Virus record (IMG/VR): IMGVR_UViG_3300037014_000313 | Coordinates: 1 to 60,464 of that record | Direction: 5' to 3' (one strand) | From: a virus | Lineage: Duplodnaviria; Caudoviricetes | Length of the DNA: 60,464 nt | In this document: in pieces, positions 3,609 through 59,194 of the stretch | How positions within the stretch are numbered: position 1 is the first letter of the stretch | Layout of the letters: every line of letters begins with the position of its first letter | Program-made: the position numbers and the translations under genes | Notes under the pieces: model-generated | What the model was told of the DNA's origin: nothing | The model's input: the letters and a program-made list of their open reading frames with translations, nothing else | Databases searched by the model: none

Positions 3609-3908
3609 ATGGGATTCATTGACGACGACAGCATGGTTCGGGTGGATTTCTTCAAGTGTGGAGGCGATGGAAGACCGCACAAGTGGTACTGCACGGAGGG
3701 GGTTAAATGGACGGGCGAGTACGAAAAAGAGAAGCAGCTTATTTACGATGCCTTTAAGAAATCACTTCGGGATCACCTGAAGGGGCGGCTCACCGGGATG
3801 GTTGCAGTCTGCCTTGAGCCGTGCCATGAATACATGTTCCCGTTGATAGCTTATGTGGATGACTTGGAAAATAACTCGAAGACAACGCCTCCCGCATCGG
3901 CGCGGTGA
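3609..3908 (+). CDS. Hypothetical protein
   Basis: ORF with a purine-rich RBS in the + arm. Confidence 0.65.
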   Translation: MGFIDDDSMVRVDFFKCGGDGRPHKWYCTEGVKWTGEYEKEKQLIYDAFKKSLRDHLKGRLTGMVAVCLEPCHEYMFPLIAYVDDLENNSKTTPPASAR

Positions 3909-3987
3909 CTCGGAGGCTGTCACGGAACACGCGACCGATGCGGAGGCGATAAACTGAATTGGGGTTCTGACTCGTAAGTGAGGATTT

Positions 3988-4107
3988 ATGCTTGACGCAT
4001 GGTGGAAAGCGCATGAATTGGAAACGTACTTTGGGTTGGTATGTTTCGGCGTATGCCTTGTGCTGATGGTCGTGTGGATCGCCGTGGGGTGGAATCGCAA
4101 GACTTGA
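3988..4107 (+). CDS. 39-aa single-pass membrane micro-protein (not in the ORF track)
   Basis: GAGG RBS; MLDAWWKAHELETYFGLVCFGVCLVLMVVWIAVGWNRKT. Confidence 0.5.
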   Translation: MLDAWWKAHELETYFGLVCFGVCLVLMVVWIAVGWNRKT

Positions 4108-4286
4108 GATATGCTGACTTTCTCTAGCCTCGCTCTTGAGGTGGGGAACGAAAGCCTCCCAGCCGGGGCGACCAGAAACGGTAGAAAGCGGGGCGAACAA
4201 CCTGTATTGTTACCGAACCAGATAGCCCCGCGCCCCGACTCGGGGGCTTGGGCTGTGTGCCAAAACAATTTCTTAAAGGAGGAACC

Positions 4287-4457
4287 ATGAACGCGAGGAA
4301 GACCAGGATCATCCGGCGCATGACAAAGGCGAAGTACGGGAACGGCTTCTATAGGCACGCGAAGCGTGCTTACTCCAGGCAGCCACACAACAAGAAGGAT
4401 GCGGCTGCGGCGTTCCGGACCGCGGCCAGTGAGCTCTTTACGCGCAGGAGGAAATAA
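4287..4457 (+). CDS. Small basic hypothetical protein
   Basis: AAGGAGG RBS; MNARKTRIIRR. Confidence 0.65.
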   Translation: MNARKTRIIRRMTKAKYGNGFYRHAKRAYSRQPHNKKDAAAAFRTAASELFTRRRK

Positions 4458-4720
4458 TGCCGCTAACGAAACCGGAGGATCATCGGATGAAGATCAAGAA
4501 GAAAGGGTTCATCACAGCCGTTCACTTCTACCGCAGCCTCGAGCAAAGTGCGGCCACCAGGACCTTGACATTTACGCCGGAGAAGCCTATCCCATTCCAT
4601 CGTGGATCATTGGTATCGGTGAACCTCAACACCGGCCACGTCAAGATCAACGGCAGGACGGTGGTCAAAGCCAGGATCAAGAACGCCGGCAACGCCAGCA
4701 TCGACGTCGCATGGGAATGA
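4457..4720 (+). CDS. Hypothetical protein
   Basis: TAATG coupling; AGGAGG RBS. Confidence 0.6.
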   Translation: MPLTKPEDHRMKIKKKGFITAVHFYRSLEQSAATRTLTFTPEKPIPFHRGSLVSVNLNTGHVKINGRTVVKARIKNAGNASIDVAWE

Positions 4721-4723
4721 ACC

Positions 4724-4984
4724 ATGACGAAGAACACAGGACGCTGCCAGCACCACGATCCCGATCACCCGTTCTTTGATGTCGCCAATGAGAAGGACAG
4801 GCGCCAGGATCAACGGCTGTCGGAGGGGATGTGCCCAAACCGGTGCGGACCCATGAAGAAGACGTCAGTCACCTCGGCGGTGTGCGGGTGCTGCCGGCTG
4901 AAGTGGGTGAGCATGAGGGTTGCTGTGGTGTGGGGGGAGAAGAACAAAATGAATGAGGACGCGGGACCTACGTTTTCTTTGTGA
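4724..4984 (+). CDS. Cys-rich hypothetical protein
   Basis: CPNRC...CGCC; fits operon packing. Confidence 0.5.
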   Translation: MTKNTGRCQHHDPDHPFFDVANEKDRRQDQRLSEGMCPNRCGPMKKTSVTSAVCGCCRLKWVSMRVAVVWGEKNKMNEDAGPTFSL

Positions 4985-5438
4985 TCGATTTTTTGGAAGG
5001 GAGAATGCCGTGGATGCCAACAAGTTTCCGGTGCTGTCCAACGAGGAGCTGAAGTCGGGTTTGGAGCGGTTGCCGTGCTGGAAGGACGCGGTGCTGATGG
5101 CGATCCTGGTGCCGTACTACAATCTCGTCGAGTTCAATGCGCTGTCGCCGAAGGATGAGAACGGGGGCAAGACCATCGCGGGCGTGCTCCAGCTCATGGG
5201 CCTGATCGAGCAGGATCTGTCGCGGCGGTTCAAGATGAGCGTCCGCGGGAAGCAGTTCATGCGGTGGGCGATCGACTCCAGGATCATCACCCCCTACGAC
5301 GGCGCCGACTTCATCGTGAAGTACGGTGGCGAGTTCGGGCGCCGGATCATGTACGACTGCGTGTTCGTGCCGTCGTCGACGCCGGCCATCCCCGATGACG
5401 TCAAAGCCGAAGTGGCGGCAGAAGTCTCCAAGGCGTAG
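4953..5438 (+). CDS. Hypothetical protein
   Basis: Typical GC3-rich codon usage; start uncertain. Confidence 0.65.
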   Translation: MRTRDLRFLCDRFFGRENAVDANKFPVLSNEELKSGLERLPCWKDAVLMAILVPYYNLVEFNALSPKDENGGKTIAGVLQLMGLIEQDLSRRFKMSVRGKQFMRWAIDSRIITPYDGADFIVKYGGEFGRRIMYDCVFVPSSTPAIPDDVKAEVAAEVSKA

Positions 5439-5439
5439 G

Positions 5440-5632
5440 TTGCGCAGGATTGTAACGACTTTGCGCAGAACGATAACAGAATTCGTTGAGAGAAAGACAG
5501 TCGACTTCCGAAACAGGATGGAGTCGAATTTTTCGACTCCGACCGAGCCCATCCTGAATCGGAAAGTGCGGAGCGTTTTCTCAAGTAATTCTGTTACGAT
5601 CCTGCGCAAAGTCGATGCAAAGTCGATGCGCG
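5440..5632. repeat. Long imperfect palindromic element, copy A
   Basis: GACTTTGCGCAG/CTGCGCAAAGTC, TAACAGAATT/AATTCTGTTA, TTCCGA/TCGGAA, CAGGATGG/CCATCCTG, GGAGTCGAA/TTCGACTCC; homologous to 44338-44556. Confidence 0.85.
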
Positions 5633-5670
5633 GCTCGGTTCGGAGCCGTATGCTTGGAAAGGAGGGGTAT

Positions 5671-6102
5671 GTGAGCGAGCACGTCTTTTTCATCGCCGGA
5701 AGGATCACGAGCGACAACAAGGGGCGCAGGATGCGCTGGCAAGCCCGCTACTCGAAGGAAAAGAAGGCACGAGAGGTTTGGGCCATACAATTCCAAGCGA
5801 TCGTTCCTAGGGCCATCCTGGTCGATTCTCCGCACCGTCCAAGGGCGATTACCCTCAAGGTCTTCAGGAATCGATCCCTCGACTGGGACAACCTCGTGGC
5901 CGGCCTTAAGCCGTTCATCGACGTCCTCAAGTGCAAGTTCTTCAAGGGGAGGACCTCTGACCCCAACATGCTGACCTGGAGGGGGGTCATCTACGACGAC
6001 AGCCCCAAGTACGTGACCTGGAATGTCCCACAGCGTACAATCCACCCATCCGAGGGTCCGTGGAAGGAGGAAGGCGTGGAAGTGAAAGTGGAGGGTATAT
6101 GA
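5671..6102 (+). CDS. rusA: RusA-like Holliday junction resolvase
   Basis: AAGGAGG RBS and GTG start; DWDNLVAGLKPFID...VIYDDSPKYV catalytic pattern. Confidence 0.7.
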   Translation: MSEHVFFIAGRITSDNKGRRMRWQARYSKEKKAREVWAIQFQAIVPRAILVDSPHRPRAITLKVFRNRSLDWDNLVAGLKPFIDVLKCKFFKGRTSDPNMLTWRGVIYDDSPKYVTWNVPQRTIHPSEGPWKEEGVEVKVEGI

Positions 6103-6914
6103 GAGTCAGACCCAAGTTTAACGCCCTGGGGGATGAACTCGCCATGACCGCTGTCATCCGCGAGCTCAAACGCCAGCGGCCACAGGAAATGATCAGGCCG
6201 GAGCTCCACCGCCGCGAGCTCGTGGAGAACAACCCCCACGTCAACATCGGCATCACCGATGAGGGTAGGTTCGAGCTCGAGGTGCACATGAACGAGGACA
6301 TCGGGAACATCGCCCAATCGTTTGCCAAGCAGCTGGGGATGGACCCCCTGGTGGATGACACGCCGGAGGTGTTCCTGACGCCGGAGGAGATCGCGCGCGC
6401 CGAGGAGAAGCTTCAGGGCATCCCCATGCCGGTCGTCGCCATCGACACCCGGGCGATGTGGGAGTCCAGGAAGTGGGCGCAGGGCAACTTCCAAAGGGTG
6501 ATAGATGAGCTCGAGACCATCTCCTTCGTCGAGATGGGATCCGAAGGTGGCAGCCCCAGCCTGCTCAACAACACCAGGGCCTGCTTCGTCAACAAGTGCT
6601 CGATCAGGGAATCGGCGGCGATCATGTCCGAATGCGACCTCTTCCTGGGGAATGACTCGGGGGGCTTCCACCTTGCCGCCGCGGTTGGCACCCCACAGGT
6701 GGTCCTCTTCGGACCCAAGAAGTGGTATGCCAGGGGGTACTGGAACACGACCCCGGTCTACTCCTTCGAGAAGTGCGCGCCCAACTGCGAGTCCCTGTGC
6801 GGCCGCCGGCGTGAGGGGCCGGAGGGGAAGACCGACAACTGGTGCCTGGGCAAGATCAAGACCATGGCCGTTGAGGATGCGATCTTCCTCGCGCTCAAGC
6901 GCTTCCCGAAGTGA
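6099..6914 (+). CDS. Glycosyltransferase family 9 (heptosyltransferase-like)
   Basis: ALGD near the N-terminus; FLGNDSGGFHLAAAVGTPQVVLFGP. Confidence 0.88.
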   Translation: MRVRPKFNALGDELAMTAVIRELKRQRPQEMIRPELHRRELVENNPHVNIGITDEGRFELEVHMNEDIGNIAQSFAKQLGMDPLVDDTPEVFLTPEEIARAEEKLQGIPMPVVAIDTRAMWESRKWAQGNFQRVIDELETISFVEMGSEGGSPSLLNNTRACFVNKCSIRESAAIMSECDLFLGNDSGGFHLAAAVGTPQVVLFGPKKWYARGYWNTTPVYSFEKCAPNCESLCGRRREGPEGKTDNWCLGKIKTMAVEDAIFLALKRFPK

Positions 6915-24916: not shown

Positions 24917-25849
24917 TTACGAGATCACGGTCCGGGCGATGTAGCCGGCCCCTTGCGAGACCAGCTTCGGCACGTCCTTGTACGACGTGCGGATGACGTC
25001 GCCCTTGCGCTCCTCGTCGCGCCACCGATCCGTGAGCATGGCCTGGCTCTGGATGTGGTAGCCCCAGGAGAGCTGCTTCAGCCCGGGCCGCGGCGCGACG
25101 TAGCCGAAGAAGATCTGTTTGCCCCAGATGTAGGACAGCACATCGGACTGCCCCTCGAGCGCCGTGTTCTCGATGCCGCCGGCGACGATGATCTTGGGGA
25201 TGTCCCACAGGGTCGCCAGGAGATCGGGCGTGATGACGCCGATCTGGGTGTACTTGATCCGCTCCAGGACCTTGGGGTGCTCGCGGGCCTTCTCGTACAC
25301 CATGCGCGGCAGCACCATGACGTTCGGGGACTTCCCGGTCATGGAGTTGATCTTCGCGCGCGCTGAGGCCACGTCGACGCTGGGATCGCTGGTCGCGGAG
25401 GTGTAGTTGTCCCACCGCTCGGCCACGGCGATGTTGACGTCGGCGCCGGCGCCGTAGGTGCCGGAGGCGAGGAGCACGGCCGCGAGACGCTTCTCGCGCC
25501 GGATCATCAGCTTCTCGGCGATGATCGAAGCGCTGTCGGCCATGACGTCGATCGGGGAATCCTGGTTCGCCTTCTCGTCGTCCTCGACGAGCTCTGCGAG
25601 GGCGTGACGCTCGGTCTTGTAGCCCTCGTGCGTGACGTTCCAGTTGATCTCTTTGGCACTCGTCTTCGGCGCCCAGCGCGTCTCTTCGACGCGGAGGTTG
25701 GACTTGTCGTAGACGTAGAAGATGTCGGAGTCCTTCTTGACCGGGACCACGGGCCAGATCTGGGGCGCGACCAGCGCCTTGTCGTTGGACAGCGCCAACG
25801 AAATGTTCGTCAGGACTACGTCCTGATGGATGTTTTTCACCAGAGGCAT
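24917..25849 (-). CDS. Major capsid protein
   Basis: 310 aa; HQDVVLTNIS, IWPVVPVKK, PNVMVL; follows the protease and decoration genes. Confidence 0.85.
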   Translation of the reverse strand: MPLVKNIHQDVVLTNISLALSNDKALVAPQIWPVVPVKKDSDIFYVYDKSNLRVEETRWAPKTSAKEINWNVTHEGYKTERHALAELVEDDEKANQDSPIDVMADSASIIAEKLMIRREKRLAAVLLASGTYGAGADVNIAVAERWDNYTSATSDPSVDVASARAKINSMTGKSPNVMVLPRMVYEKAREHPKVLERIKYTQIGVITPDLLATLWDIPKIIVAGGIENTALEGQSDVLSYIWGKQIFFGYVAPRPGLKQLSWGYHIQSQAMLTDRWRDEERKGDVIRTSYKDVPKLVSQGAGYIARTVIS

Positions 25850-25919: not shown

Positions 25920-26324
25920 CTACGTCGTGATCGGGCTCTGAAGGATCATGGCCTCGATGACGTCGCCATCGGCCGTCGCGACCTCGAGGGCGATGGCCCA
26001 GTTGACGTCGGCGCCAGCGCCACCCTGGACGAACTTGCCATCCGCGGCGCCCAGCTTCAGGAAGCTGTTGATCGTGCAGCCGCCGATGCCGATCCGGACC
26101 TTCGACGTCCCGATCCGGGTGACCGTGGCCAGCTCATCGGCCGCGGGAAGGTTCTTGAGGATGCCGATCATCTTGTCCGTGGCACCCGCGCACTCCACGA
26201 TCTGCCGCGCCACGGTGTGGAGCTTCACGGCCCGATACCGCTTGGAGGTCGTGGAGGCAGCGTCGCTCGACAGGTCCGCGCCGGCGACGAAGGTCAGGTC
26301 TTGAATGACGTTTTCCTGGGACAT
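25920..26324 (-). CDS. Capsid cement/decoration protein (DUF2190-like)
   Basis: IGIL.N...A.....V...G...AIALE.ATADGDVIE pattern. Confidence 0.7.
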   Translation of the reverse strand: MSQENVIQDLTFVAGADLSSDAASTTSKRYRAVKLHTVARQIVECAGATDKMIGILKNLPAADELATVTRIGTSKVRIGIGGCTINSFLKLGAADGKFVQGGAGADVNWAIALEVATADGDVIEAMILQSPITT

Positions 26325-26385: not shown

Positions 26386-27585
26386 TTACTCCACCAGGGC
26401 CGGGTTCGCCTTCGCGACCTCGCGGACGGCTTCCACGTAGGTCATGGAACGCCCCTTCTTCAGCTCATCGGCCAGGTGGACCTGGGTGGCCTTGTCCAAC
26501 ATCTTGGACTTGGACTCGCCTTCCGCCTTCATGTTGGCGATGAGATCGGGGTTCTGCGTGGCGATCTCTTCCAGCTTCACGATCTGGGGGAGGCCGCGCA
26601 TGAACTCCTTCATCCAGCCCAGGGGCGACAGCTCCTTGGCTTCCTTGGCCTCGGAGAACTTCATCGGCTTGGAGTCCGTCAGGGTCTCCAAGAACCGCGA
26701 AATGCCCATCTCCTGCCAACGGGGCAGGAAGCGACCTTCACGCTTCAGCTCCTCGCAGAACGAGGAGATCGACGCGCGATGTTTCTCGACGCTTTCCTTG
26801 GCCAGCTCCGCGGTGAGCTCCTGGTTGCGCTTCTCGAGCTCGGCCACGCGGCCGACCAGACCGGCATGATCTTCCGCCATCTTCGTCCCTCCTTCGTCCG
26901 AAAAAACCGTGATCACATTGTCGTTCTCGCTCATGGCGGCGACATCCGCCAGGGTTTTCACTTCCGGGACGTCGGCGCCCAGGAGCGCCACGCGGCGCAG
27001 GGCCAGGCCGAACGCCTTTCCGCCGTCCATGAAGTTCTGGTACAGCTCCGCGGAGATGCGCTTGTAGCGCCCCGCCTTCACGGCCGTGATCGCGGCCTCG
27101 GGGACGTCGTCGAACTTGGCGACGAGGACGGCGCCGTCACCCTTCTTCTTGACCTCGACGTGCTTGAGCCAGCCCAGGGCGGGCAGCCCCGAGTTCTGGA
27201 GGATGGTCTGCTTCTCGTCGTGGCCGAGGACCATGGGCGGCTTCAGCTTCTCGCCGAAACGCTTGAAGTTGTCGGCGATCGTGTTGAGGTCGGCCTCGGT
27301 GAAGGTCCTGTCGCGATGGGTGCCGGTGGCAAAGATCTCGACGTTGTCGAGCTCGGCGCACTTCACGAAAGGTTTCTTGTCCTCGATGGGCTTCTTGTCT
27401 TCGGCGAGTTTCTTGTCCTTGGCATCCAGGGCGGCCTTTGCGGCCTTGGCGGCTTCCTCTTCCTCCCGCTTTTTCTTCTGCTCGGGAGTCTCGTCCTTGC
27501 CCGGCTCCTTCATCTCGGTCTCTTCGTCGGGCATGATGTCAACCTTGGTGTCCTTCTCCTTGTCGTCTTCCTCTTTCTTGGTCAT
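26386..27585 (-). CDS. Prohead protease/scaffold (Mu-like)
   Basis: VEIFATGTH, PMVLGHD, PALGW, YKRISAEL, VALLGADVPEVKTL; coiled-coil C-terminus. Confidence 0.82.
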   Translation of the reverse strand: MTKKEEDDKEKDTKVDIMPDEETEMKEPGKDETPEQKKKREEEEAAKAAKAALDAKDKKLAEDKKPIEDKKPFVKCAELDNVEIFATGTHRDRTFTEADLNTIADNFKRFGEKLKPPMVLGHDEKQTILQNSGLPALGWLKHVEVKKKGDGAVLVAKFDDVPEAAITAVKAGRYKRISAELYQNFMDGGKAFGLALRRVALLGADVPEVKTLADVAAMSENDNVITVFSDEGGTKMAEDHAGLVGRVAELEKRNQELTAELAKESVEKHRASISSFCEELKREGRFLPRWQEMGISRFLETLTDSKPMKFSEAKEAKELSPLGWMKEFMRGLPQIVKLEEIATQNPDLIANMKAEGESKSKMLDKATQVHLADELKKGRSMTYVEAVREVAKANPALVE

Positions 27586-27682
27586 TCCAAGGTCTCCATA
27601 AACAGGACTTGTCGGACAAAGAACCTACTTCCAAAGGAATACCCCGTAAACCAATCAATGTCAATGGAAAACTGAAAATTCT

Positions 27683-27814
27683 CTATCCGTACTGGATCAG
27701 CGTCAGGGCACCACTCCTTACGACGAGAGCATAGTCGAGGATGGGGCGCCCGCATTTCCTGCACGCGAGGAGGCCATCGATGAGCTCGATGGGCTCACGA
27801 TGCTCCTTGCACAT
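27683..27814 (-). CDS. 43-aa zinc-ribbon micro-protein
   Basis: TGATG coupling to the Dam gene; MCKEH...CRKCG. Confidence 0.5.
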   Translation of the reverse strand: MCKEHREPIELIDGLLACRKCGRPILDYALVVRSGALTLIQYG

Positions 27815-29259
27815 CAGGCGAACTTCACTTCCAAGATCAAGACCTGGGGGTCTTTGGATCTCTGGATCCTTCGCGGCTCCTGGAACGGCTTCCATTCTTC
27901 CACCTTGTAGCAGTAGAGCTTTTTGTTGGTGTCGTCGAAGTTGACCGAGACCTGGTGCTCTGACTTTCTGCGCTCGAACTCGATCGGGGTGATCGTCTCA
28001 GGCTGCGACAAGACAATCTCCCCGAGAGCCATGGCGCCTTCAATGAGAAGCATGGTTCTCCCGGAGATGTCCATCTGCGACGTCTTCACGATCGCCTTCT
28101 TCTTGCCGTCGGCAATCATCTTCCCGTAGGGGGCTTTTAGGACGAGCCCGTTGATGACGTCGGGCTGCCCGTCTTCGTCCGAATACCACATCAGCAATTC
28201 AGAGAATTTGTTCTTGGGGTCGATCGGGAAGTTCGCGGCTAGGATCTCCGTCCTCTTCTTCCCACTCGTGCGGTGCTCGAATGATCCTGACTGGATCGGC
28301 GTCCTGACAAACTTGATCTCGAGCTTGCTCAGGCGCTCCCTGTTGCCGGGCGTGTCGTCATACGACACCATGACTTTGCCCTTGGTGCTCGAAGCCATCT
28401 GCGCGAACTTCTTGTGATCGAATCCCGTTTCTTCCAGGATGAGGGAGGGGTCGAGATCGCGCTCATACGGGGGGTCCATGTAAAAGAACGTGGACGGCGA
28501 ATCGTACTTCTTGATGACGTCCACGAAGTCCATATTCTCAACGATCACGTTGCGAAGACGCTCCACGTACTGGGGAAGCTTTCTCTCGAGCCAGCTCTTG
28601 CAGTTTTCGATCGTCTTGTCCGGCTTGAATCCGAATCGAAGCCCGGTGTTTCCCCGCGAGAACCTCTTCAGGTAGAAAAACCGGTAGAACCGCTTGGCCG
28701 GCGACAGCCTGGCGGGGTCGAGCGCCTTGACCTTCATGAAGTATTCTTTGTTGTTGTCCCATGGCATAGACAGGATTTCTTTCGCGTCTTTCCCGGTTGC
28801 GGTCTTAAGGAATGCGTACCCAGCCGCGATGTCAGGGTTCTTGTCGTTAAGCACCTCGCGCTTCGATGGCGTGGGCCTGTAGAAAAAGACTGCGGCGCCG
28901 CCGGCAAAAACCTCGACGTAGGTTTCGTGAACGGGGATCAGGGGAACAATGACGGGCGCAAGCCATCTCTTGCCGCCAGGAGAACCCCATGCGCCGGACC
29001 TCACACCACCTTCTGCGAAGATATCCGCCTCGAGGCCCAGTTCGTCCTCCATGTACTCGGACAGCATGGACATCTTTTTCATCCTGTCCATGAACTCGGC
29101 GTAGGTTTCCAAGCCTGGGACCCCCATCTCCTTCTTCATGCCGAGGACGCACTGCTCGAATTTGGCGTCACCCCAGCCGTGCTTCTTCTGCATGGCGCGG
29201 CACACGGCCCAGGGATTGACGCCAGATTCCTTGATCTTTTCCTTCTCTGAGTCGGTCAC
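27814..29259 (-). CDS. Dam-family N6-adenine DNA methyltransferase fused to a small N-terminal domain and an ASCH-like C-terminal domain
   Basis: GGKRWLA, YVEVFAGGAAVF, EVLND, FYMDPPY; C-terminal GLVLKAPYGKMIADGKKKAIVK. Confidence 0.85.
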   Translation of the reverse strand: MTDSEKEKIKESGVNPWAVCRAMQKKHGWGDAKFEQCVLGMKKEMGVPGLETYAEFMDRMKKMSMLSEYMEDELGLEADIFAEGGVRSGAWGSPGGKRWLAPVIVPLIPVHETYVEVFAGGAAVFFYRPTPSKREVLNDKNPDIAAGYAFLKTATGKDAKEILSMPWDNNKEYFMKVKALDPARLSPAKRFYRFFYLKRFSRGNTGLRFGFKPDKTIENCKSWLERKLPQYVERLRNVIVENMDFVDVIKKYDSPSTFFYMDPPYERDLDPSLILEETGFDHKKFAQMASSTKGKVMVSYDDTPGNRERLSKLEIKFVRTPIQSGSFEHRTSGKKRTEILAANFPIDPKNKFSELLMWYSDEDGQPDVINGLVLKAPYGKMIADGKKKAIVKTSQMDISGRTMLLIEGAMALGEIVLSQPETITPIEFERRKSEHQVSVNFDDTNKKLYCYKVEEWKPFQEPRRIQRSKDPQVLILEVKFA

Positions 29260-31028
29260 TTCACCACCTCCTTACAAGCAGTCACCTTCAGGAACAGCCT
29301 CAATGCCTCGGAGTGGCTCATCCACTTTCCGTGCTTGACCCTGTACTGTCGCTCGAGTCCTGCAAGGTCGAAGCCAACGGGCTCGGCCTCGCTGAATCTT
29401 TTCATGCCATGTTTGCTGTCGTGCATCCTGAACAGCCAGGCGTACATCTCCTTCAGCTTTCCGATCTTCTGCGGCTCATCTGGAAGCATGGACTTCCGCA
29501 TCTCCGAGAAGTTCTCGGGGACATCCTCGTCCTCGTCTTTGTCGTCATCTCCAGGAACAGCGTCTTCCTCGATGGCGGGCGCGGCATCCTGTGGCGGCTG
29601 CTGTTCCGGCTGTGGCTGCAGATTGTTGGGGTCGACGCTGGCATTGGGATCCGCGGCAGCATTGGGATCCGCGGCAGCATTGGGATCGCCACCGGGAATG
29701 CCGAGCTCCGGCTCATCGGGGCCGACCTCGAGCGTGGCCGATGATTCGGACGGAGTGGGGCGCCCGTACTTCCTGTAGAAGTATGCGGGGTCAAGCTTGA
29801 GGTTGAGATCCTTGACCAAGCTCTTGTCGAGATCGAGCTCGACGATGAGGTCTTCGGCCCGTGACGTCTCGAACTTGAACTTCGGGTACTCCTCGACGTT
29901 GTAGTTGAGATCGACGATGCGCCTGATGTACTGGCGGTTCATGACGTCTTCGATGACGCCGGCCAGGTACTCGACGAACATCTTCGACACCTTGAAGTGG
30001 ACTTCGCCCTGGGCCCGGGCTCCGGTGCGCTTGCCTTCCTCGGCCCAGAGGAAGCTGCCCATGATGCCGATTAGGATCTCCTTGTTGAGATCGGCGATCG
30101 CGCGTTCGTACTCCGTGGTCCTGCCCTCCTGGGCGACCTTGAGGATCTCGATCTTCAAGTCCTCGGGAATGGTGATGACGGTTTCGTTCTGGATGGACTC
30201 CAGAACCTCCTCGAGCTTCTGCCGGCGCTGCTCCGTCGTGCCAGTGGGGAAGGTGCCGACGATGGGCGGCATCCCCCACTTCTCCATGAAGATGGCCCTG
30301 AACTTCCACGCCCAGTCCTTGATGAAGAAGGCGCGGTAGGCGGAGCGGAGATCGGACTGGCCGTAGGGATTGCCATAGAGCGGCTGGAACGCGCTGATGA
30401 TGAACTTGTCTGGATTGAACTCCGTCTGCCCCATGGAATTCTCTTGGATGCCTTCGCCGGCGATCTCGTAGCCGCCGATGCGCTGGACGATGGAGACAAT
30501 GTTGCCGTAGTCGTCGATCCTGAACGTGAAGACGTAGGGGTCCTTCGACTTCACGGACTTGACGCCGAGCTTGCCATCGAAGGCGCCTGAGTCGACGACG
30601 CGGAAGTTCATCTCGCCGATGGAGTACCCGACATCGACGCAGTTCATGATCCCCCAGAGCATGGTGTAGACCGACGTCTCCATGTTCTCGAGGTTGTACT
30701 CGACGAACTTGGCGATGTTCTGATCTTCCTCGGAATCCGATGCCGGCAGGATCTGGATGGGAAGCCGGGCCACGGAGAACTTCTTCAGGTTGATCGCGGC
30801 CTTGACGTATGGATCGCGAATCATGTCCTGGTAGATCTTGACGCCCTGCCCCTTGGAGAGAACGAGATCGTCGGGGTTGTAGTCACTAAGGCCGCCGAGC
30901 ATGGCCAGAGCCGATCGCGTCCACTCCTTCATCAGCATCTGCGCGGACTGCATGCGCGTCGTGCCGGAGTTCGATGGATCTGCGTACTCGGTGTGTTTTA
31001 TCCTGCCGGGTTTCTTCTTCTTCACCAC
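29256..31028 (-). CDS. Portal protein (DUF935 / Mu gp29-like)
   Basis: VGYSIGE, NPYGQSDLRSAY, FMEKWGMP, GARAQGEVH; follows TerL. Confidence 0.87.
   Translation of the reverse strand: MVKKKKPGRIKHTEYADPSNSGTTRMQSAQMLMKEWTRSALAMLGGLSDYNPDDLVLSKGQGVKIYQDMIRDPYVKAAINLKKFSVARLPIQILPASDSEEDQNIAKFVEYNLENMETSVYTMLWGIMNCVDVGYSIGEMNFRVVDSGAFDGKLGVKSVKSKDPYVFTFRIDDYGNIVSIVQRIGGYEIAGEGIQENSMGQTEFNPDKFIISAFQPLYGNPYGQSDLRSAYRAFFIKDWAWKFRAIFMEKWGMPPIVGTFPTGTTEQRRQKLEEVLESIQNETVITIPEDLKIEILKVAQEGRTTEYERAIADLNKEILIGIMGSFLWAEEGKRTGARAQGEVHFKVSKMFVEYLAGVIEDVMNRQYIRRIVDLNYNVEEYPKFKFETSRAEDLIVELDLDKSLVKDLNLKLDPAYFYRKYGRPTPSESSATLEVGPDEPELGIPGGDPNAAADPNAAADPNASVDPNNLQPQPEQQPPQDAAPAIEEDAVPGDDDKDEDEDVPENFSEMRKSMLPDEPQKIGKLKEMYAWLFRMHDSKHGMKRFSEAEPVGFDLAGLERQYRVKHGKWMSHSEALRLFLKVTACKEVVK
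29638..29688 (-). repeat. 18-bp tandem repeat in the portal C-terminus (DPNAAA, about 3 copies)
   Basis: GCATTGGGATCCGCGGCA repeated. Confidence 0.8.
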
Positions 31029-32548
31029 TTTGATCCTCCAAATCCGACGCGCCGGCGCGATCCCGAGCCGACGGCATCACCTGTTTCCCTGGCCCTTGGA
31101 TTGTCGGTGGCGACTACGCCCGGGGTGAACACGCGCGCCCCCGTGGACCTGAACTGCCCGGGATCGAACGGCCGACCCATCTTCTCGATACCACGAAGGG
31201 CTGCTTGCGTCAAGGCGTCAACCATGTCGTCATGGGATCCCTTGGGAAAGCCGAGGAGCTCGTTGATGACTTTCTCGCACGTCCCATCCTGGAACGTGAT
31301 GAATCCACGTTCGTAGAACACGGCCGTCTGCTTGACCCGCTGCTCCTTCCCGACTGATGGAACGACCTTCCTGATGGGGAGCGTCATGATCCTTTCGTCG
31401 CGGCCCATGATGACCTGGAATCCCGTGGACTCGATGAGGATTTCGTCCGGTGTCCAGGTCGCGAAGTCCGAGATCAAAAGCTCGATCATCTCGTTGTACG
31501 TCATCCCGCGCCAGCGATCGACGCGAAGAACACGCATCGTGTTTTCGTTGGTGTTGACGTCCATGAGCGCGCGCGCGGTCCAGTCGCCTTCGCCTCCGCT
31601 GGCGGCGAAGTCCCACGACGACAGCCGAAGCTGCCCGCGCGGGGGAGGGGTGACAAACTTCCGAATCCACGCCTCCTGGACGATGCGCTCCCTGTCGGGA
31701 TGCAGGATGTTCCGCATCGAGCGGTCGAATTCGATCGACCCCATTTCGGCCTGACGCGACAGCAGCGCCGACGTCGACCACTTCTCGGGCCAGTGCGAAA
31801 CCGGGGGATCTCCCGTCACGGAAAGGCCGATCCAGTTCCACTCCTTGTTCTTCATGAGTTCGTGCGTGAGATCGTCCTCATGGTGGAGCGTGGCGAGGTA
31901 GGCCGCCCGGCCCTGCGGACCCAGGAGCGGGATCCACACGTTCTGAAACGTCTCCTTCACCTGTTTGCGCTGGGTGGGGTACTTGATCGCGTTCATGAAG
32001 TCGACGACGTCGTCGAAGAGGATCTCGTCAGCGCGGCCGCCGGTGCCGGAGGTCAGGATCCCACAGGCCTCGACGGATGAATCCTTGGAGAAGACGTTGC
32101 GCTTGATCGTCAACGACTTCTTCCCCCAGTCGTCGATCCACGGCGACTTCACCAGATTCGGAAACACGATCTTCAGGTACTTGTTCCTGGAGATGAGATC
32201 GCGAATCAGCATCACGCGGTCGACGGCGAGTTCGTCGCTGGCGCACAGGAGCTTGATGAGCATGTCGGGATGGTTGCCTAGGCGGTGGAGAAGACGGGCC
32301 ACGGCCTGGGAGGTCTTCCCGAGCTCCTTCTGCGCGAGGATGCCGGCGCGCTTGTGCGTGTCCATGTGCGCTTGCATCTTCTTGTGGCATTCCGCCTGTT
32401 TGAAGCGGAACACGAACTCGATGAAGACGTTGATGTCCTGGCGGGCGACTACGGCGATCTTCTTGTAGAGGGCGTGCGCGGCGACGGCAAGCTGCTTCTT
32501 CTTCTTGATCTTGGCGTCTTCTTCGGTCCAGCCGGTGGGGTCGGCCAT
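31022..32548 (-). CDS. terL: Terminase large subunit
   Basis: AQKELGKT Walker A-like, GGRADEILFDD Walker B, SWDFA and HDDMVDALTQ nuclease motifs. Confidence 0.92.
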   Translation of the reverse strand: MADPTGWTEEDAKIKKKKQLAVAAHALYKKIAVVARQDINVFIEFVFRFKQAECHKKMQAHMDTHKRAGILAQKELGKTSQAVARLLHRLGNHPDMLIKLLCASDELAVDRVMLIRDLISRNKYLKIVFPNLVKSPWIDDWGKKSLTIKRNVFSKDSSVEACGILTSGTGGRADEILFDDVVDFMNAIKYPTQRKQVKETFQNVWIPLLGPQGRAAYLATLHHEDDLTHELMKNKEWNWIGLSVTGDPPVSHWPEKWSTSALLSRQAEMGSIEFDRSMRNILHPDRERIVQEAWIRKFVTPPPRGQLRLSSWDFAASGGEGDWTARALMDVNTNENTMRVLRVDRWRGMTYNEMIELLISDFATWTPDEILIESTGFQVIMGRDERIMTLPIRKVVPSVGKEQRVKQTAVFYERGFITFQDGTCEKVINELLGFPKGSHDDMVDALTQAALRGIEKMGRPFDPGQFRSTGARVFTPGVVATDNPRARETGDAVGSGSRRRVGFGGSKW

Positions 32549-33288: not shown

Positions 33289-34551
33289 TTAGGCGTCGTT
33301 TCTCAAGGTGACACGGATCTTCATCTTCTGCACGGGATAGAGATTGAGATCGTCGAACAGGTTGACGTCCTGGTAGCCGAGATATCCTGAGCCATCGGGA
33401 TCGACGTTGACCTCGTACTCCCACGTCTCCGGAAGGGTGTCGCTCTTGTCCTTGTCGAGAATGCCCGCAGGGCCACCTCCGGCGCCACCACCCAGGTTGG
33501 CGTAGTCGTGGATGGCCAGGAGCTTCCGAATCCTCTGCGGCGTCACCAAATCGAGCTCGAACTCGACCGAGCCTTCCGTGTAGCCGGTGGCCAGGACCCA
33601 GTCGCCGTTGACATCCTGCTCGACGCTGGATGCGGGGCTGACGACACCAGCGTCCCAGATGGCGCCGTTGTAGTTTTCGCTGCAGCCTTCCCCGAATTTC
33701 GAGTAGGCCCCGAGGATCTGGCCCGAGATGGAGGCCGGAGTCGTCTTCTTCGTCATGTAGACGCGCCTGGCCTGATCCAGGAACTGAGGATCCGCGGAAA
33801 CTGAATCCAAGTCCATTCCAGGAACCGCGGCCTGCCACGCCGAGAGCGACGTCTTGTCCACTGCGGACTTGGCGCACTTGCCGGCACCGAAGTCGATGTC
33901 GTTCGTCCCGGAGGCGGAGTATCCGTAGGAATAGAGATGGTAGGTGTTGTCGTGGAAGATGCAACGCCTGACGAGGTGTGTTGAGTTGGCGCCTCCACCC
34001 CTCATCCCATAGAGATTGTCAGAGAACGTGCAGTTGTAGGCGTAGGCGGTTTCTCCATACGTCCCGCCACCATTGTAGGCGCCAGCCTGGGTGAGGTGGT
34101 GGAACAGACAATTGGTAACGACGATGTAGATGTACCCGTTCGTGTTCGAGAAAATCCCGTATGGCATGTCCTCGAAGATGCAGTTGTTGAATATGCCTCT
34201 CTGGGAGCTTGAATTTCCGGCAGAGGGCATCAGGAATCCTGCGTTCGTGTAATTCCTGAAACGGAATCCGTTGAACGTCAGGATTCCGGCAGAATTTCCG
34301 GTGGTGCCGGCCGTGATCGCGTTCGCGAGCGTGCTGTTGCCGTCCATGATCGCGAAGCCGACCGCGGTGAACGTCAGTGACTTGCTCTCGATCGGGACGT
34401 TCACGGCCTCGTTGAACACGCCCGTGCAGAAGAGAACGTCGGTGCCAGCTGCCGAGGACACCAGTGCCGCGAGGGTCTTCTTGGCGTTGGCCCAGGACAA
34501 GCCATCGTTGGCGTCGTTCCCGTTCCTGGCATCCACGTAACGATTGGTCAT
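33289..34551 (-). CDS. Right-handed beta-helix (pectin-lyase-like) protein, paralog 2
   Basis: YVDARNGNDANDGLSWANAKKTL; NCIF/NCLF/NCTF rungs; DPQF. Confidence 0.75.
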   Translation of the reverse strand: MTNRYVDARNGNDANDGLSWANAKKTLAALVSSAAGTDVLFCTGVFNEAVNVPIESKSLTFTAVGFAIMDGNSTLANAITAGTTGNSAGILTFNGFRFRNYTNAGFLMPSAGNSSSQRGIFNNCIFEDMPYGIFSNTNGYIYIVVTNCLFHHLTQAGAYNGGGTYGETAYAYNCTFSDNLYGMRGGGANSTHLVRRCIFHDNTYHLYSYGYSASGTNDIDFGAGKCAKSAVDKTSLSAWQAAVPGMDLDSVSADPQFLDQARRVYMTKKTTPASISGQILGAYSKFGEGCSENYNGAIWDAGVVSPASSVEQDVNGDWVLATGYTEGSVEFELDLVTPQRIRKLLAIHDYANLGGGAGGGPAGILDKDKSDTLPETWEYEVNVDPDGSGYLGYQDVNLFDDLNLYPVQKMKIRVTLRNDA

Positions 34552-34563
34552 CGAATCCTCGCT

Positions 34564-35844
34564 TTACATGTCACGCCGGAGAGTCGCCTCGACCTTGATG
34601 GCCCAGATGCCAGTGAGGTTGAGATCCTCGTTGATGTTCTTCGCCGTGAACGCGCCGAACGCGATCCCATCCACGGACGTCGCGATTCTGTACTCCCACG
34701 TCTCGTATCCGAGAGGGATCGTCTTGTCGTAGTCCAGGACGGACGTGGGCCCGCCTCCGGTCCCAACCATAAGGCCGCCGAAGGTATGCGACAGATTCAG
34801 CTTCCGGATGTTGAAGAGACCGCCGAAGTCGATCTTGAACGTGATGGCTCCGACGTCGTATCCATCGGCGAGAACCCAGTCCCCGTTCGAGTTCTGGATG
34901 ACGCTTCCCACGGGACTCACGGAATCCGGGGTGTCCCAGACGGTGGCGTTGAAGTTGTCGCTGCAGCCGTCAGCCAATAGGAGGTTGTATGCCCCGAGAA
35001 TCCTGGCGTCGATCACCGCCGGAGACGTATTCTTCAGACGATGAAGATTCTTGGCCTCGTCCAAGAACAACGGATCCACCGAGATTGAATTCTGGTCATA
35101 TATGGCGATTGCCGCTTTCCACGCAGACAGGCTTGTGTACGCGCCCCCAAAGTAGAGCGTGTTCGACCCCGTGAAATCGTAGCAGTTGAAATCGAACGGC
35201 CCGGCCCAGTACCCGGCAGTGACTGCATAGATCATATAGCCGGGGATGTTGTGGAAGATGGACCTTAAGACTGCTACGGAGGTGCCAGTGGCGGGCCAAT
35301 GCCTGATTCCGTTGCCGCAATTCACAAACGTGCACTGACTGACGCGGTAAGTGATCTGGCATCCTGATCCTTCCACGTAGACTGCCCAAAGACGGCACCC
35401 CCTCATGATCGTATTTGTCAGCGTAAGGGGTACAATGGGACCGCTACTGGCTGGCATGTACATTCCATAAGGAATACCCTCGACAATACAGTTTTCGAGG
35501 GTAACACCACCGCCATTTCCAACGAGGTAGAAGCCGATGGAATAGAAATTTCTAAACGTAAAGCCTACGAACTTCAGCGTTCCCGCTCCTACGCCTGTCA
35601 GCGTAACACCAGTGGGCAAATCGAGCTGGCCATCCAATATGGCAAAGCCTACAGCCTGGAAGGTTATTGATCCTTTTGTGTTCCACGGATAGAAAACAGC
35701 TTCATGGAAGACGCCAACGCAATAGATGGTATCTCCCGTAGAGGCGGCAGTAACAGAGGAGCCCAGCGTCTTCTTGGCGGTCGCCCAACTCAACCCATCG
35801 TTTGAGTCGTTACCGTTTCTGGCGTCGGCGTAGCGATTTGCCAT
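34564..35844 (-). CDS. Right-handed beta-helix protein, paralog 1
   Basis: YADARNGNDSNDGLSWATAKKTL; NCIV/QCTF rungs; DPLF. Confidence 0.75.
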   Translation of the reverse strand: MANRYADARNGNDSNDGLSWATAKKTLGSSVTAASTGDTIYCVGVFHEAVFYPWNTKGSITFQAVGFAILDGQLDLPTGVTLTGVGAGTLKFVGFTFRNFYSIGFYLVGNGGGVTLENCIVEGIPYGMYMPASSGPIVPLTLTNTIMRGCRLWAVYVEGSGCQITYRVSQCTFVNCGNGIRHWPATGTSVAVLRSIFHNIPGYMIYAVTAGYWAGPFDFNCYDFTGSNTLYFGGAYTSLSAWKAAIAIYDQNSISVDPLFLDEAKNLHRLKNTSPAVIDARILGAYNLLLADGCSDNFNATVWDTPDSVSPVGSVIQNSNGDWVLADGYDVGAITFKIDFGGLFNIRKLNLSHTFGGLMVGTGGGPTSVLDYDKTIPLGYETWEYRIATSVDGIAFGAFTAKNINEDLNLTGIWAIKVEATLRRDM

Positions 35845-51913: not shown

Positions 51914-52025
51914 CACGGCCGCGAATAGGGCCGGAGATCCGATCCGCCACGCCTATTGGTGTGGACAGTTCGTGGGGTTGCAACGGGCGATCGACATCGT
52001 GAAGCGAGAGACGGGGGTGATCTGA
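51831..52025 (+). CDS. Small hypothetical protein
   Basis: GGAG RBS; stop coupled to the helicase start. Confidence 0.5.
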   Translation: MAKAKKKRNLNPTGLVNLFKDKRKIALDTAANRAGDPIRHAYWCGQFVGLQRAIDIVKRETGVI

Positions 52026-53437
52026 TGGAGATCGGCAGGCCTGCGCTCATGGAGCATCAGCGACAGGGCGTGGCGTTCCAAGCCGAGCAGCCGGCCGCGT
52101 ACCTGTGCTGTGACCGCGGGACCGGGAAGACGGCGATGGCGCTGGCGAACATGTCCGCGCTCGTGGAGAGGGGCCTGGTCAAGCGCATCCTCTACGTGGC
52201 GCCGCTGTCAACGCTCGACAACATCGTCAGGGAGGCGTACCGGTTCACTGACAACGTGAGGGCGCGCGCCGTCTTCGGCTCCAGGGTTGACAGGGAGCGG
52301 ATGCTGAAGAACCCCGGCGTCTACAACTGCGACGTCATCAACTTCGACGCCCTGCGCATCCTGCCGGAGGCGCTCACGGCCGTGGGCTACGACGCCATGG
52401 TGATCGACGAAGCCAGCCGCATCAAGGAGCGGCGCACCCAGGTGGCCCAGATCGCCATCCTCCTGGGCCGTCGCGCCAGGTATCGAAGGTGCCTGTCGGG
52501 GATGCCGTTCACCGAGGGCGTGGAGGACTTGTGGAGCCAGTTCTACTTCCTCGACGCCACGATCCTGGGCAACAACTTCTTCGGCTTCAGGAACAAGTTC
52601 TGCGTGATGGCGGAACGACGCAACTTCAAGACCGGCAAGAAGTTCCACACCATCGTGGGATACCACAACCTTGACGAGCTCGAGCGCAGGGTCAGCGGCG
52701 TCACGTTCAGGGTCAGGAAGGAGGACTGCCTGGACTTGCCGCCGAAGACGTACCAGGTGCTGAAGATCAAGATGCTGGAGGAGCAGGAGAAGGCGTACAG
52801 GCGCGTGATGAAGACCGAGTTCTCCGACATCGGCGACCACGAGATCACGCACGCGATGGCGCTGACCAAGATCGCCAAGCTCAGACAGGTCGCCGCAGGA
52901 TTCCTGTACGACGACGACCACGAGCCCGTGCTCGTGCCCACGGCGAAGTATGGCGAGCTTCGGGATCTCTTCACCGACACCCTGTACGGATCCAAGAAGA
53001 TGGTGGTCTTCACCGCGTTCAAGGCCGAGCCCGACATGGTGGAGGCCTGTGCCGGTGAATGCCAGAAGCCGATCAAAGTGTTCAGGCTTCCTGAGAACCC
53101 CGCGATCCGACAGAGCTGCGTCGACGCATGGAAGGCTTGGAAGCAGTCGCCGGCCATCCTCGTCGCCAACGTCCGAAGCGGAGGCACCGGCCTGAACCTC
53201 GAAGCCGCCGACACCGCCGTCTTCGTGTCGAACGACTGGAGGATGGAGGACCGGGTCCAGGCCGAGGACCGCATCCATCGCATGGGCAGCGAGATCCATT
53301 CCAAGATCACCATCGTCGACATCGTGACCGAGGACAGCGTCGAGGAGGACATCCTTCAGGCGCTGAAGGAGAAGAAGGATCTTGTGGACGTGTTCCTCTC
53401 GCGGATGAGGGGAGTGAAGAAAGGAGACGTGATGTGA
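52025..53437 (+). CDS. SNF2-family helicase
   Basis: HQRQGV, DRGTGKT, IDEAS, LSGMP, GGTGLNL, QAEDRIHRMG. Confidence 0.9.
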   Translation: MEIGRPALMEHQRQGVAFQAEQPAAYLCCDRGTGKTAMALANMSALVERGLVKRILYVAPLSTLDNIVREAYRFTDNVRARAVFGSRVDRERMLKNPGVYNCDVINFDALRILPEALTAVGYDAMVIDEASRIKERRTQVAQIAILLGRRARYRRCLSGMPFTEGVEDLWSQFYFLDATILGNNFFGFRNKFCVMAERRNFKTGKKFHTIVGYHNLDELERRVSGVTFRVRKEDCLDLPPKTYQVLKIKMLEEQEKAYRRVMKTEFSDIGDHEITHAMALTKIAKLRQVAAGFLYDDDHEPVLVPTAKYGELRDLFTDTLYGSKKMVVFTAFKAEPDMVEACAGECQKPIKVFRLPENPAIRQSCVDAWKAWKQSPAILVANVRSGGTGLNLEAADTAVFVSNDWRMEDRVQAEDRIHRMGSEIHSKITIVDIVTEDSVEEDILQALKEKKDLVDVFLSRMRGVKKGDVM

Positions 53438-59100: not shown

Positions 59101-59194
59101 GAAGGAAGACATCGAGCGCGAGATGATGGGGCCCGGTGGCGCACTTTCGAATCCCACCGGGCAGAAGACCTTTGAGGAAGGAGGCGATCGATGA
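56123..59194 (+). CDS. AEP primase-polymerase fused to an MCM-like AAA+ helicase
   Basis: FFDLD, FSGKKGFH, RRVLRI (AEP); GDSGQGKT, VVDEF, IALSN, RRFD (MCM-like); Cys-rich zinc segment between. Confidence 0.85.
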   Translation: MQGFRSEYVYVDVHSSAQKQWRRVKIDQVDEKLLKPSKNFKCFKSVQRYNKAHAEPGEHVWMPLFFDLDNEKDPGITIDDVKKLYGYMTEVLQIHHHFVRMYFSGKKGFHVVIEPECFDIRPHHEIHLKIRKAALNISEHLDLKTFDSKVYSVRRVLRIHNSIHEGTKLFKIEVSLGDLAKGIDFIKEKAKRPQEDVTPEEPSEEVSISQEAKEFWDGIRLEVEEAEELSNLKPDHMIHDFGELPVCIKHMLSLPALPTSHSGNRTILSLAAYMKDIGWTEQKTVETLVPWLVKLPNIGNAGNPKAIEAGARATIAFVYRKSTDDKGDRYHFACKYILALSTPDHKIPCQNVQCPAVKGKMQETKETIDLSLDGFSKSIYLGEKVRVPTLISGKAGTPYVVPKRVRFTCPPDEDGEFCKNCPIAQFNGEASFEFDVKDPEILEIVNTSNKFQWEAIRRKFRFPPACSRCKTRVEEYMNIEEVRMSPAAVDVSDFQKSEFVNRKGFFIGYPLQSNKRFMVTGFPVKDPKTQTSAFLFQEHEKLETEIETFTMTPEIKAELEVFCAKEGDVEGKFEDIHNDLSTNVYRIWNRRDLAWAADLVVHSVRGFKFRSEPFVKGWIELLVVGDSGQGKTACVRRLVQGHYKVGEYVSGGASKRTGLLYSYQENGKTWMLIWGAMPLNDLGLLVVDEFGDMAEEEFALMTDVRSSGIVKAVGVVTAETFARVRLIALSNAKKGKHLAEYDLPVVAIKELVPAAEDIRRFDFALCVASGEVPVETINRADFEHVHHVYTSSLCRNLIRWAWSRKETEVEFTDGASKFILHEATRMAKDFYAGDIPLVEPADQRFKLARLAAAAAARVFSTDEKGDKIVVKEEHVGFIMGLLYEIYNNHNFKYGEWSRTQRKTESSGVEDLRGCLDRIMDLPQWKRIFGLLTLPGQIDGREVEGVMSGDRSKSSQVLALLRIVGLVEKKWGKYAKTSKCNQLVSWAFLNGHVKKEDIEREMMGPGGALSNPTGQKTFEEGGDR

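Follow-up and report, generated by a model that had tools for sequence, protein, structure and literature searches.

The IMG/VR virus record IMGVR_UViG_3300037014_000313 (the window), linear, 60,464 bp long and estimated to be 64% complete, carries among its head genes a 481-amino acid (aa) protein of three parts, in which a Dam-like adenine DNA methylase core is preceded by a small two-Cys helical N-terminal domain of roughly 50 aa (N-domain) and followed by an ASCH-like C-terminal domain (C-domain). The reading that we favour, tentatively and with a little less than even confidence, is that this protein is a head-associated anti-restriction enzyme co-delivered with the phage DNA. It is favoured because the methylase gene overlaps the portal gene, lies in the slot that MuF holds in related heads and has long relatives that are linked to portals across metagenomes, because fusions of such methylases to XkdF prohead proteases exist and because the N-domain recurs on a prohead protease, P0007.

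Whereas the domain make-up, the synteny, the portal overlap and the clade-wide link to portals are observed, we infer the association with the head, the ejection and the anti-restriction role. In the proposed course of events, the methylase fusion gene would have taken the portal-adjacent place of MuF, or of MuF-linked cargo, in related heads, and its product would be synthesised late in infection, along with the portal. The N-terminal region would bring the fusion into or onto the prohead, from which it would exit with the DNA and, where S-adenosylmethionine is available, methylate the incoming genome before host restriction acts, in the manner of P1 DarB and the polyvalent proteins.

The gene for the methylase fusion (27814..29259, minus strand; PF02086, 1.2e-24, residues 94-308) belongs to a minus-strand series that runs from the large terminase subunit (TerL) through the portal, the methylase fusion, a protease/scaffold protein and a small head protein to the capsid protein. 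The TGA stop codon of the 590-aa Mu-type portal (29256..31028, minus strand; core residues 64-422; PF06074, 2.3e-71; phrog_113, 5e-82) and the GTG start codon of the methylase share 4 nucleotides (nt), GTGA, preceded by the strong ribosome-binding site AAGGAGG, which bears out the translational coupling to the portal put forward in the original prediction, made from the sequence alone. The same prediction placed the gene just upstream of the protease. It does sit between portal and protease, but a gap of 228 nt intervenes, with no sigma-70-like promoter called in it; the gap holds a possible 43-aa CxxH..CxxC open reading frame (ORF; 27686..27814, minus strand) whose ATG overlaps the methylase stop codon (TGATG) and which has a zinc-finger match below the cut-off (E 0.012). 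The replication genes are, as had been noted, remote, lying on the other strand more than 20 kb away (helicase, 51956-53437; primase-helicase, 56123-59194). A second DNA methyltransferase of 530 aa, distant from the head module, is encoded at 1393-2985 on the plus strand (phrog_363, 3.5e-68; phrog_116, 2.9e-23), so that the head-slot enzyme is not simply the only methylase of this phage.

In all three related head modules that we compared, a MuF domain (PF04233) follows the portal or is fused to it, in agreement with the claim that MuF normally holds this slot. The modules are those of L002, an IMG/VR contig with an 817-aa portal-MuF fusion (5.1e-13) whose protease and capsid protein are each 30% identical to those of the record; of Rossellomorea phage phiT1 (gp60, 1.3e-18); and of Bacillus phage Riggi (gp12, 2.2e-17). 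In the record itself, PF04233 gave no match at E<=1, and a profile built from the MuF domains of the three relatives gave none at E<=0.1. In L002, the closest viral-contig relative of the head module, a 686-aa collagen-repeat protein (3722-5782; PF01391, 5.3e-34) is placed between the portal-MuF fusion and the protease.

Comparison across metagenomes extends the link to the portal beyond this record. An alignment-based scan of metagenome contigs yielded 237 relatives of the methylase, the best 80 of which were kept, and upstream context was counted at the 54 of these 80 loci where the contig extends for 1500 bp or more upstream of the methylase ORF, using portal and TerL profiles made by iteration from the record and from Pfam-checked seeds; a Pfam check of upstream ORFs confirmed the portal in three of four cases. 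Of 25 long forms (at least 400 aa), 20 are preceded by a portal-like ORF in the same orientation, which in 15 of them is no more than 300 bp away and mostly overlaps; among the short forms this applies to 1 of 29, and there the contig ends within the methylase ORF. Locus L017 becomes the 21st portal-linked long form if a portal-MuF ORF that overlaps the called start is counted. When eight long ORFs (724-1612 aa) were scanned, all contained PF02086, five an ATP-dependent DNA ligase, four an MBL fold and one an XkdF prohead protease, and none gave a MuF match at E<=0.001.

Fusions to a prohead protease occur elsewhere as well. P0030 joins a methylase to an XkdF prohead protease, and phrog_13242 matches the 481-aa methylase at profile positions 24-275 and the protease of P0007 at profile positions 316-425. 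Because phrog_13242 and phrog_1530 match both domains, methylase-protease fusions appear to be present already in sequenced phages, labelled 'unknown function' or 'DNA methyltransferase'. For both families, it is the methylase or the prohead-protease domain of a given protein that matches, at different profile positions. Among cultured phages, none of 192 matching records covers 80% of the full-length fusion, and no full-length relative was found in viral contigs; P0030 and the giant protein of locus L007 likewise have no full-length match in cultured phages. A related arrangement was seen at L085 3200-5800, which is the GenBank archaeal virus ANMV-1 (KP703175.1): here an 867-aa 'ATP-dependent DNA ligase' that matches residues 900-1488 of the L007 giant (E 6e-21) directly follows a 427-aa ORF annotated 'MutT-like phage hydrolase', a layout that resembles the order of portal and then polyprotein.

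The N-domain (residues 14-47; 29119..29220, minus strand), which runs from NPWAVCRAMQKK to KFEQCV, was described in the original prediction as a small N-terminal domain, and the AlphaFold2 model gives it two short helices, at residues 18-27 and 31-44, with a conserved Cys in each and a confidence score (pLDDT) of 87-90 over the block. It has no Pfam match at E<=10. A phmmer search with residues 1-90 against 1.84 billion representatives returned 22 non-self matches at E<=1e-3. P0002 (1027 aa) combines the N-domain with Dam, an ATP-dependent DNA ligase and a C-domain that it shares with the 481-aa protein; P0003 consists of the N-domain and a Dam methylase; and in P0007, an S78 prohead protease (PF04586, 4e-10), the N-domain forms the C-terminal end. 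Ten further matches are small (47-113 aa) and for the most part very basic, and the rest are larger proteins with no Pfam family above the cut-off. We set aside as spurious P0005, which looks like a repeat protein and is matched in six stretches at 24% identity.

Other routes to relatives of the N-domain gave nothing that could be confirmed. An alignment scan of viral contigs produced 26 pattern matches, none confirmed, and a degenerate DNA pattern had no match in viral contigs; its two matches in genome contigs (NPCAIC and NPCAMC) were rejected as chance, having no hidden Markov model (HMM) match. No match to the N-domain HMM at E<=0.01 turned up in the 80 metagenome loci or elsewhere in the record, and no relative of P0002 was found in viral contigs. 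Locus L088 encodes, at 4918-6591, a 557-aa protease-scaffold protein whose protease part shares 53% identity with the P0007 protease; the stretch after its protease, CVRAMMNDGYSLDSAKRIC, looks like the N-domain by eye, a resemblance unsupported by BLASTP (E=18) and by the HMM.

The C-terminal tail of the HK97 protease serves as a capsid-targeting signal. By analogy, an N-domain at the end of a prohead protease would fit a targeting role, if the parallel with HK97 holds. With the portal linkage and the XkdF fusions, the N-domain on P0007 gives comparative support to the tie between methylase and head assembly that had been proposed from gene position.

The methylase core (residues 94-346; 28222..28980, minus strand) is of the D12 class of N6-adenine DNA methylases. 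PF02086 matches with 87.8 bits against a cut-off of 22, placing residues 94-308 on profile positions 2-237 of 253, and the translation contains FAGGAAV and FFYMDPPY, which we take to be the S-adenosylmethionine-binding FxGxG and catalytic DPPY motifs; D262, P263 and P264 are invariant in the methylase alignment. The AlphaFold2 model was built from a 25-row alignment for the cluster representative P0001, which differs from the record's protein at residues 1 and 202, and is confident over about residues 90-345. The Foldseek matches of this core include DpnM and T4 Dam as well as Escherichia coli Dam (4rtj_A, E 2e-16, TM 0.78 by target). Judged from its sequence and model, the core is a complete, EcoDam-like D12-class adenine methylase. 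Codon 202 (28654-28656) reads CGG (Arg), where P0001 has Trp and aligned homologues have F, Y or W, in a loop before a conserved Gly; R202 could reflect natural variation, a sequencing error or an impaired copy.

The C-domain (residues 370-481; 27817..28152, minus strand) had been called ASCH-like, and this holds by way of its homologues rather than by a direct match: PF04266 gave none in the C-domain at E<=10, nor any at E<=1 in a six-frame search of the record. 'ASCH-like' is nevertheless a fair call, because a profile of seven sequences, including five homologues added from metagenome loci, aligns end to end with 1wk2/2dp9 in the PDB (TTHA0113; E=0.022), which we take to be an ASCH protein, and because three of the seven aligned C-domain homologues match PF04266 (best 6.4e-4). 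As a lead only, the ASCH set makes up 21 of 30 matches of the C-domain in the ESM Atlas. ASCH domains are PUA-like β-barrels with a conserved GxKxxExR-type motif; between TTHA0113 (DGRKVWEIRRRK) and the C-domain (DGKKKAIVKTSQ), G and K are retained, and E and R are replaced. An AlphaFold2 model of the C-domain alone, from two sequences, is β-rich but, at a pLDDT of 48.8, too weak for a fold search, and a word-based search found no stand-alone relatives. By analogy with known fusions, the ASCH-like domain is a predicted reader of methylated bases. It remains contiguous with the methylase in six further loci, and the two parts probably act as one unit, writer plus reader.

Much of this can also be accommodated by an ordinary late methylase that is co-translated with the head genes, stays in the cytoplasm, methylates replicated DNA before packaging and is never itself packaged, the main rival explanation, which we regard as somewhat improbable. 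The slot would then be a tolerated insertion point, and MuF would have been lost or would lie in the unsequenced part. The completeness of the EcoDam-like core is in keeping with this, as are the incompleteness of the record, the near absence of portal linkage among short relatives and the existence of bacterial Dam-ASCH fusions outside head contexts, described in passages of PMC4738411 (Iyer, Zhang and Aravind 2016). GATC is not avoided in the whole record, with 559 sites observed against 219 expected from base composition (2.6-fold over), which fits methylation of progeny DNA, although codon bias is uncontrolled and may explain the excess. A cytoplasmic enzyme leaves unexplained why long forms are so regularly coupled to portals, mostly by stop-start overlap, why XkdF prohead-protease fusions exist and why the N-domain is shared with the C-terminus of a prohead protease.

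Several points weigh against a head-associated, co-delivered enzyme. Synteny alone is weak evidence of virion association, and late-operon methylases that stay cytoplasmic are common; one phage match, H28, adjoins a terminase gene. As the record is estimated to be incomplete, it may have a MuF gene in the part that is missing. MuF and the methylase protein coexist in L010, L016 and L017, where the MuF domain sits between the portal and the methylase protein, so that replacement of MuF by the methylase is not general. Nor are the 80 loci independent of one another, as the close copies L007/L049 and L005/L006 illustrate. The very basic stand-alone forms of the N-domain also fit a plain DNA-binding module, and the Arg at position 202 in place of W, F or Y may mean that methylase activity is impaired in the record's copy.

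The original prediction went further and read the motif [FYML]-[AS]-[ED] as a candidate cleavage site. In the full form of this model, a polyprotein loaded into the prohead would be cut after the motif by the Mu-type protease into N-domain, methylase and ASCH units. We consider this improbable. The motif was defined after the portal, methylase and protease proteins had been looked at, and every instance listed for it was found in its place. In these three proteins it occurs 16 times per 1464 positions, against 56 per 15303 in 69 other rough ORFs (Fisher p=3.9e-4), and at 10.9 per 1000 positions against 4.9 in 25 other late ORFs (p=0.0087). Shuffles of whole proteins put the excess in the protease (7 observed against 1.87 expected, P=0.0016) and the methylase (5 against 1.70, P=0.022), with the portal at 4 against 2.29 (P=0.19); late proteins overall also exceed the expectation from composition (40 against 25.7). 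The enrichment is a nominal two- to threefold over background, for a post hoc motif. The closest relatives, P0002 (3 against 3.24) and P0003 (2 against 1.22), show none, and neither do five other relatives.

In favour of cleavage, all five methylase occurrences fall in the two linkers that flank the core, where shuffles within the linkers expect 0.59 (P=1e-4): YAE, LSE and FAE at positions 53, 66 and 81 of an acidic linker (residues 48-93; 28981..29118, minus strand; pLDDT <50 at 59-84), and KFSE and YSD at positions 352 and 359 of the second (residues 347-369; 28153..28221, minus strand; pLDDT <50 at 351-379). Residues 200-245 of the protease hold four occurrences against 0.27 expected; both these and the linker segments were picked after the occurrences had been seen. 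Control motifs are unenriched, whether reversed (0.25x), with [GT] in the middle (1.05x) or with Q/N or K/R last (0.7-0.76x). Among out-of-sample relatives that share the protease family, there is a nominal excess in L002 (protease, 5 against 2.02, P=0.044; portal-MuF, 7 against 2.82, P=0.026) and L003 (protease, 6 against 2.26, P=0.021; portal, 4 against 1.48, P=0.052), with none in the capsid, decoration, MuF and collagen-like proteins of L002 and L003 and none in Riggi. P0002 has EEFAE immediately before its ASCH-like domain.

A more mundane reading is available. Helix N-termini often have a hydrophobic residue followed by Ser or Ala and next by an acidic residue, and the helix at residues 53-74 of the model begins exactly at YAE, so that the occurrences could simply mark helix starts. 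Separation into methylase and ASCH units is further disfavoured by the contiguity of the two domains in the six other loci. Nor does the precedent invoked for it carry over: according to passages of PMC5694885, the proteases of T4, phiKZ and SPN3US recognise A/S-X-E, in which the small residue occupies P3, and cleave behind its Glu. They belong to another protease family, and A/S-X-E is unenriched in the proteins of the record (p=0.55). The papers searched gave no cleavage site for Mu-type proteases.

A fourth possibility, which we hold to be very unlikely, is that the enzyme methylates sites that the terminase needs or reads, and is placed where it is for regulation and not for delivery. P1 Dam, which acts at pac, is a precedent. 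The methylase gene is within 3 kb of TerL (31022..32548, minus strand; phrog_38, 5.6e-58; PF17289, 6.7e-12) as well as being coupled to the portal, and the order TerL, portal, methylase is kept in related loci. No pac or cos site was identified in the record, however, and the ligase, MBL and protease fusions of the relatives would be left unexplained.

Injected head cargo is already known as a concept. Polyvalent proteins, as set out in passages of PMC5512222 (Iyer, Burroughs, Anand, de Souza and Aravind 2017), are multi-domain products of virion genes in portal-terminase phages, proposed to be packaged and injected against host defence. The 481-aa protein resembles them in combining an N-domain, a Dam core and an ASCH-like domain between portal and protease, and its relatives reach 1200-1600 aa with three to four recognisable domains. 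It differs in that their methylase, in the same passages, is a DarB-type dyad of methylase and superfamily 2 (SF2) helicase with LPD36, whereas here there is a D12 Dam core, no MuF domain within the protein and a minimal form of 481 aa. PF02086 was the sole Pfam family found in the 481-aa protein, and thus no helicase, with no search aimed at LPD36. In the text of PMC5512222, ASCH and XkdF do not occur, 'mbl' appears only as the mreB/mbl gene in a reference title, and the passages with 'ligase' concern RNA ligases.

The archetype of a head-carried methylase that protects incoming DNA is DarB of P1/P7, as passages of PMC5512222 present it; the 481-aa protein belongs to another methylase class and has no helicase. 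The same source treats MuF, in the passages concerned, as a head component fused to effector domains, and heads of the MuF/SPP1 gp7 kind are alike in the slot after the portal, unlike in that the record has no PF04233 match. Relative to DarB, the 481-aa protein is about a fifth of the size. In T4, through its capsid-targeting sequence, and in phiKZ and SPN3US, cargo enters the prohead by way of an N-terminal propeptide that is later cut off behind a Glu (PMC5694885, in part), and the idea of such a propeptide is what would carry over to the 481-aa protein. The proteases differ, T4 gp21, phiKZ gp175 and SPN3US gp245 being of family S77/S80 with the A/S-X-E motif in those passages, and the one here of Mu I type (phrog_976). 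In bacterial Dam-ASCH fusions, an N6-adenine methylase writer is joined to an ASCH domain for which binding of modified bases is predicted; as far as passages of PMC4738411 describe them, they occur in bacterial or restriction-modification/ParB-linked contexts, in contrast to the head-module slot and the more divergent ASCH-like domain found here.

The papers searched yielded no virion Dam methylase and no XkdF-methylase fusion. Within these papers, the portal-coupled Dam/ASCH-like/ligase/MBL/XkdF family, its MuF-less minimal member and the two-Cys N-module appear to be undescribed. A broader proposal, which we think doubtful, is that these proteins form an unnamed, widespread class of portal-coupled DNA-care polyproteins (MBL, Dam, ASCH-like, ligase and sometimes protease) that would be built into the capsid and would methylate and repair the entering genome; the record would hold the minimal member, in which the 'NPWAVC' module would be a capsid-targeting handle and would have taken the MuF slot.

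Were the enzyme carried in the head, Dam-class methylases would join DarB as injected anti-restriction cargo, and phage host range would depend on a virion protein besides the methylation state of the DNA. The portal-linked giants, with their MBL, Dam, ASCH-like, ligase and XkdF domains, would then amount to a compact set of tools with which incoming DNA is protected and mended, and the small N-domain could be considered as a tag by which foreign proteins might be loaded into capsids. Without packaging, the enzyme would be an ordinary late methylase whose place is unusual.

The rest of the head module was assigned as follows. The protease/scaffold gene (26386..27585, minus strand) encodes a head maturation protease at about residues 75-231 and a scaffold-like C-terminal half (phrog_976, 1.5e-41); it has no Pfam match, and is 30% identical to the 'scaffold protein' of phiT1, which itself matches PF10123 (Mu-like_Pro, 5.1e-06). 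It is followed by the small head protein, a scaffold or decoration protein (25920..26324, minus strand; phrog_673, 1.3e-06), and by the major capsid protein (24917..25849, minus strand; phrog_1005, 9.1e-69). Residues 3-308 of the latter align to positions 6-313 of 315 in the family profile and, given this end-to-end match, no long capsid propeptide is evident. The portal carries a long C-terminal extension beyond its core (residues ~430-590; 29256-29740, minus strand), with three DPNAAA-like repeats, a Q/P-rich, very acidic tract and, at the end, ~80 aa with the look of a folded segment, unlike related portals, which end near residue 440-490 or carry MuF.

Over the whole record, and likewise with codon bias uncontrolled, TCGA is also over-represented (550), CTAG is nearly absent (15 against 219 expected), and there are few TATA or TTAA sites. 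Two adjacent paralogues of ~420 aa each (33289-34551 and 34564-35844, minus strand), located just upstream of the terminase region, share the N-terminus M.NRY.DARNGND.NDGLSWA.AKKTL and are probably receptor-binding or depolymerase-like proteins.

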